Source: an uncultured bacterium
GTDB taxonomy: Bacteria; Patescibacteriota; Dojkabacteria; SC72
Length of the DNA stretch: 64,000 nucleotides
Assembly (NCBI GenBank): GCA_903906305.1
Contig: CAIVJR010000005.1
Span: 83,667 to 147,666, forward strand
Direction: 5' to 3'
Notes under the pieces: model-generated
What the model was told of the DNA's origin: nothing
Database searches by the model: none
Seen by the model: the letters and a program-made list of their open reading frames with translations, nothing else
Part shown: in pieces, positions 36,807 through 38,291 of the stretch
Layout: each line of letters begins with the position of its first letter
How positions within the stretch are numbered: position 1 is the stretch's first letter
Translations under genes and position numbers: made by a program

Positions 36807-38291
<1,485 letters not shown>

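Follow-up and report, generated by a model that had tools for sequence, protein, structure and literature searches.

A single in-frame TAA interrupts proS, the gene for prolyl-tRNA synthetase (ProRS), in a 64,000-nt stretch of a Dojkabacteria (WS6, CPR) genome, and this stop stems from an isolated G→T change, seen in one assembly only, which is most likely a sequencing or assembly error, less likely a very young null allele, and represents no new biological feature. The observations are that one base is altered in one contig, that nothing else has changed with it, and that independently assembled copies of the gene from the same strain are intact. We infer that the assembly, not the cells, carries the wrong base, because ProRS is essential and single-copy in the small CPR genomes and a null allele of it should at no time reach an abundance at which it is assembled. 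In what follows, the window denotes the whole stretch of 64,000 nt that was analysed (~37% G+C, ~91% coding).

The proS gene and its in-frame stop

When the stop is read through, the proS frame encodes a protein with 95% identity to intact 489-aa proteins and with 65-71% identity to proteins named proline--tRNA ligase from Candidatus Dojkabacteria and candidate division WS6. With codon 111 translated as Glu, this protein scored 556.4 bits against TIGR00408 (proS_fam_I), for which the equivalog cut-off is 437; taken separately, the N-terminal and C-terminal fragments scored 108 and 397 bits, respectively, both below that cut-off. The closest solved structure is the ProRS of Thermus thermophilus (1H4Q; E = 1.5e-151, residues 3-480), an archaeal/eukaryote-like ProRS of the kind found in some bacteria, which has the same family and architecture as the Dojkabacteria enzyme. 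The class II core (PF00587), the anticodon-binding domain (PF03129) and the C-terminal Zn domain (PF09180) are all present in the precomputed annotation of every 95%-identical homologue, and residues C443, C448, C472 and C475 occupy invariant columns in the ProRS alignment. Apart from the interrupted frame, proS is typical of the archaeal-type ProRS family in all respects; the interruption, by TAA at codon 111, was found in this contig only.

Table 1. Positions in the window of proS, its stop codon and the resulting fragments
Feature	Position	Strand	Remarks
proS, archaeal/eukaryote-type class II ProRS, with one in-frame TAA	36807..38276	minus	489 codons, colinear with homologues
In-frame TAA, codon 111	37944..37946	minus	T at window position 37946 on the gene strand (A on the plus strand)
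N-terminal fragment, 110 aa, with motif 1	37944..38276	minus	from the ORF list
C-terminal ORF from Met145, 345 aa	36807..37844	minus	motifs 2 and 3, anticodon-binding domain, C-terminal Zn domain
GGAGG, Shine-Dalgarno-like	37854..37858	minus	codons W140-R141, 9 nt upstream of ATG145; direct reading

An initial, sequence-only reading of the window had described the two proS ORFs as lying in the same frame and forming a colinear, 489-codon archaeal-type ProRS broken by a single in-frame TAA, and both the translation and the TIGR00408 match agree with this description. Its statement that proS has no other lesions also holds, because the stop, which lies between ...GKGIVVD and DAKLEEELIIRPTSET... 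in the protein context, is the sole internal one among the 489 translated codons. The first Met had been placed 34 codons downstream of the stop, and ATG at codon 145 is indeed the next in-frame start; the ORF that begins there is without residues 112-144, RPTSET included. Furthermore, tblastn of ProRS against the 64-kb window detected no second copy of proS, in line with the remark that only one was visible there.

The whole window was screened for same-frame nonsense splits, defined as stops with 90 or more stop-free codons both before and after them, a definition that takes in neither frameshifts nor stops near gene ends. It returned 3 cases in 64 kb, namely the proS stop, an antisense shadow at 29022 and a gene junction at 6758, and proS is the only nonsense split of that size (both halves of at least 90 codons) in the 64 kb. 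The stop at 6758..6760 (minus strand) was rejected as a lesion, being an ordinary junction of two neighbouring genes. They share a frame, with TAA and two codons between them, and their products are a membrane protein of 164 aa and a penicillin-binding-type protein of 667 aa; read by eye, the genes are mreD and mrdA.

Codon 111 in relatives and in other assemblies of the strain

Loci of relatives were gathered by protein-guided scans, and none of the 163 relatives with loci covering codon 111 contains an in-frame stop anywhere in proS. In a DNA alignment, 3 relatives have GAA where the window has TAA, and all 8 of the closest relatives (95-100% amino acid identity) carry GAA or GAG at this codon. 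In Dojkabacteria that are less closely related, the codon is CCN (Pro), whereas Gly or a gap prevails in the other homologues. Across homologues, the residue at this position is Glu, Pro, Asp or Gly, or is missing. The sequence-only reading had expected a sense codon for Pro or Glu here, which matches the Glu of the 8 closest relatives and the Pro of the more distant Dojkabacteria. The comparison with orthologues from sibling genomes that it had recommended has thus been carried out and gave a sense codon both in the close relatives and in independent assemblies of the same strain. The Dojkabacteria ProRS carries a 14-residue insertion (approximately residues 98-112) that the Thermus enzyme does not have, and the stop sits within it. 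Variation of codon 111 among homologues, together with its location in this insertion, points to a tolerant loop, yet one in which the codon is always a sense codon.

L006, a contig of a different ENA assembly that encodes the intact protein P0121, aligns gap-free to window positions 36651..39019 with 17 mismatches. Over positions 36651..38916, that is, 2,266 nt including all of proS and both flanks, there is a single difference, at 37946, where L006 has G (GAA, Glu) and the window has T (TAA) on the gene strand. The remaining 16 mismatches, all synonymous, are confined to the terminal 103 nt of L006, which belong to the RuBisCO gene. Contigs from three further assemblies (L167, L168 and L169) showed 100%, 100% and 99.96% identity, respectively, to the adjacent 2-2.3 kb of the window, and the stop base is one of only two differences in the ~8.9 kb compared, the other being synonymous, at 40353. 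Given the near-identity of L006 and L167-L169 to the window, the strain is near-clonal across samples and has been assembled several times; ERZ1426763, ERZ1426747 and ERZ18659942 are other samples that contain it.

Exact-sequence look-ups recovered the window protein with Glu111 (P0121) from 4 other contigs, and the exact 110-aa and 345-aa fragments from 1 contig only, which is 244,877 bp long and is evidently the source of the window. The intact 489-aa proS was located on contigs of 5,894 and 4,772 bp, the longer of which also carries an identical RuBisCO protein with the same 31-nt spacer to proS. An exact-pattern search with the 47 nt surrounding the codon, in which the variable base was set to N, gave no match in metagenome_contigs or genome_contigs. 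By these comparisons, the stop is private to one contig among the assemblies of a near-clonal strain.

Three more 345-aa C-terminal ProRS proteins and one 144-aa N-terminal protein were listed for related strains, giving the appearance of a recurrent split of proS. Recurrence was rejected, because the genes in L004 and L005 start 46 and 68 nt from the contig end; their 345-aa products are artefacts of contig ends and gene calling, in which the first start codon of a truncated gene was taken. The contig-end check covered these two 345-aa entries, with P0151 (345 aa) and P0138 (144 aa) lying outside it. A different break is annotated in candidate division WS6 bacterium GW2011_WS6_36_26, for which a single contig of 18,338 bp has proS recorded as two pieces, KKQ04619.1 (274 aa) and KKQ04618.1 (212 aa). 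The break is at approximately codon 273, the first piece ending in ...NSWGE and the second starting with MMGALIM. As far as the database protein entries go, this suggests sporadic lesions in MAG copies of proS at unrelated positions.

The neighbourhood of proS, which comprises genes for a radical SAM protein, a RuBisCO-like protein, ProRS, UvrA, a PEGA protein, a tRNA synthetase and MreB, is in synteny with that of related contigs whose proS is intact. Directly upstream of proS, at a distance of 31 nt, lies the gene for a 458-aa homologue of the RuBisCO large subunit (PF02788 and PF00016; 38308..39684, minus strand), an arrangement that is conserved in relatives. CPR bacteria possess form II/III or III-like RuBisCOs, which are used in nucleoside salvage. 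Window positions 38917..39013 (codons 224-256 of the RuBisCO-like gene) contain 16 synonymous substitutions in 97 nt relative to L006, followed by the 2,266 nt of near-identity in which only 37946 differs, and L169 begins near the divergent end of L006, at 38978. This break in the middle of the RuBisCO gene looks like the trace of a co-occurring, more divergent strain or of a recombined segment that breaks or chimerises assemblies. L167 and L168, which are independent assemblies, both end exactly at window position 41507. The region 41424..42212 contains small ORFs only, encoding DUF3892 (99 aa, 41637..41936) and DUF2188 (80 aa, 41926..42168) proteins, and then tRNA-Pro(CGG); beyond 41507, it may be a strain-variable islet beside the tRNA gene.

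Elsewhere in the window, two giant ORFs of 2,624 and 2,250 aa (48164..56038 and 57138..63890, both on the minus strand) contain multiple Laminin_G_3 (concanavalin-like lectin) and Gly_rich_2 domains and probably encode surface or adhesion proteins. A Fic/DOC protein is encoded between them (56022..57131), and the G+C content of the giant-ORF region is ~0.42-0.43, compared with ~0.36-0.38 elsewhere. The terminators of the 44 window genes (long ORFs) are TAA in 28 cases, TAG in 15 and TGA in 1. The sole TGA-terminated gene (565..1254, minus strand) is RadC-like by eye (HNHPSG motif); the TGA trinucleotide is common out of frame, with 2,072 occurrences on both strands, and is strongly avoided as a stop (1/44).

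Possible origins of the stop codon

The sequence-only reading had left four options for the stop, two of which, an error and a very recent mutation, fit the data above, and a third, programmed readthrough or suppression, is unsupported. We consider it probable that a base error arose in the consensus or the library of one contig and that the organism's true codon 111 is GAA. The G→T change on the gene strand (C→A on the plus strand) would come from library damage, PCR or consensus calling, and the proS of the organism would read GAA (Glu) at this codon, giving a normal 489-aa ProRS. Changes of the G→T/C→A type are typical library artefacts of oxidative damage (8-oxoguanine). Unsupported bases in a well-covered consensus are rare with De Bruijn assemblers, and the length of the source contig suggests reasonable coverage, so that many reads may carry T; if they do, it may be either a real allele or an artefact of early PCR or of damage. 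It is also possible, although we think it rather unlikely, that TAA was really present in the sample DNA as a very young null allele of proS with no programmed function. Such an allele could represent a dead-end variant, a pseudogene in the making or the DNA of cells that were not growing, in each case too young for further changes to have occurred. The source contig is not only long but otherwise clean in the screen for splits with halves of 90 codons or more, which means that the base may have good support; the synonymous difference at 40353 demonstrates that real single-base variation between assemblies of the strain exists; and the absence of any other difference over 2,266 nt is as compatible with an event of the very recent past as with an error. 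However, the interrupted copy is the only proS in the window, the relatives all keep proS intact and syntenic, GAA is present in four other contigs of the same strain, and loss of an aminoacyl-tRNA synthetase encoded by a single copy should kill the cell, so that the null allele should not reach a frequency at which it is assembled. An old or decaying pseudogene was rejected, since there are zero further changes, synonymous or not, relative to the intact allele across the gene. We regard it as very improbable that a natural Dojkabacteria population has TAA as its true majority allele and survives with its only ProRS gene interrupted; survival could in that case depend on inefficient termination or near-cognate readthrough of UAA at the tolerant loop, or on host-supplied charging of Pro-tRNA.

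Decoding of UAA as an amino acid, by a suppressor tRNA or in a leaky context, would also yield a full-length ProRS, and because codon 111 lies in a variable loop within the insertion absent from T. thermophilus ProRS, any inserted residue would probably be tolerated. Yet the stop is conserved in 0 of the 8 close relatives and 0 of the 163 relatives in total, and the otherwise identical strain represented by L006 has GAA, which makes such decoding highly unlikely. UAA is recognised by both release factors and is the least leaky bacterial stop, and the TAA-G context found at the proS stop is used by 9 genuine terminators in the window. The search that had been proposed for a second proS and for a tRNA with the anticodon UUA was conducted within the 64-kb window, which contains one proS and 8 tRNAs, none of them with this anticodon. 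The predicted RNA fold of the 121 nt around and downstream of the stop was no better than that of shuffled sequences (z = -0.12), and an Rfam search of the window at the gathering threshold returned tRNAs only. Reassignment of TAA to sense was rejected, as TAA is the main terminator in the window (28/44) and an in-frame TAA is present in one gene only; the tRNA-Trp in the window has the ordinary CCA anticodon. Stop-codon recoding has been described in CPR bacteria, but the sole case in a review of the subject (PMC13293708), UGA→Gly in Gracilibacteria/SR1, concerns UGA rather than UAA, and our literature search found this known case only and no stop-codon peculiarities of Dojkabacteria.

A functional split enzyme, in which the 110-aa N-terminal piece would pair with a C-terminal piece translated from Met145 to give an active ProRS, is exceedingly improbable. 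The 345-aa piece could be translated from the GGAGG upstream of ATG145. Relatives have GGCGAG or GGAGAG at this site, and L006, with its intact gene, has the same GGAGG; the motif is thus no adaptation but a by-product of the Trp-Arg codons that resembles a Shine-Dalgarno sequence by chance. Residues 112-144 are absent from both pieces, and among them is the invariant R122-P-T-S-E-T127, which forms the amino-acid-binding loop in class IIa synthetases. From the stop to Met145, the frame contains no ATG, GTG or TTG, the ATG in TAAGATG being out of frame; neither fragment reaches the TIGR00408 cut-off; and no relative is split at codon 111, the two checked 345-aa entries being contig-end artefacts. 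The sequence-only reading had considered a split enzyme unlikely, and the loss of residues 112-144, including RPTSET, upon a restart at Met145 bears this out. A working split proS enzyme is therefore not credible.

Consequences for annotation and comparison with known systems

As it stands, the stop is significant for annotation quality only. When completeness or metabolic potential is scored, proS should count as intact (Glu111) or carry the flag 'internal stop, probably an error', and the stop should be taken neither as a loss of ProRS nor as evidence of recoding. Were it a real majority allele, the case would be modestly interesting, as that of a CPR symbiont with a nonsense codon in an essential synthetase gene.

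Of the tested features that define recoding sites, reassigned codons, decaying pseudogenes and naturally split synthetases, the proS locus displays none. The stop lacks conservation, and it is accompanied neither by a stimulatory RNA structure nor by a leaky context; in-frame TAA does not occur in many genes, nor is TAA unused as a terminator; several lesions or relaxed constraint are not seen in the gene; and its two pieces do not combine own starts, full coverage and a conserved split. The UGA→Gly recoding of Gracilibacteria/SR1 likewise involves in-frame stops in a CPR genome. The proS case differs from it in the codon (UAA) and the lineage, in affecting one gene, in having TAA as the main terminator and in the CCA anticodon of tRNA-Trp.

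Naturally split aminoacyl-tRNA synthetases include the split AlaRS of Nanoarchaeum equitans and the two-subunit LeuRS of Aquifex aeolicus, in which, as in proS, a synthetase is encoded in two consecutive ORFs. Their splits are conserved, and the pieces have separate starts and together retain every residue, whereas the proS split occurs in one contig only and would cost the enzyme 33 residues, an invariant motif among them. Internal-stop pseudogene calls caused by base errors, for example 8-oxoG G→T changes, are routine in draft genomes and MAGs. Although, unlike in routine error calls, the proS contig is long and without another large same-frame nonsense split, the proS lesion resembles the 'internal stop' calls that stem from consensus or library errors in being one substitution in an otherwise perfect, conserved and essential gene, and, as in 8-oxoG-type artefacts, it is a G→T transversion private to one assembly.
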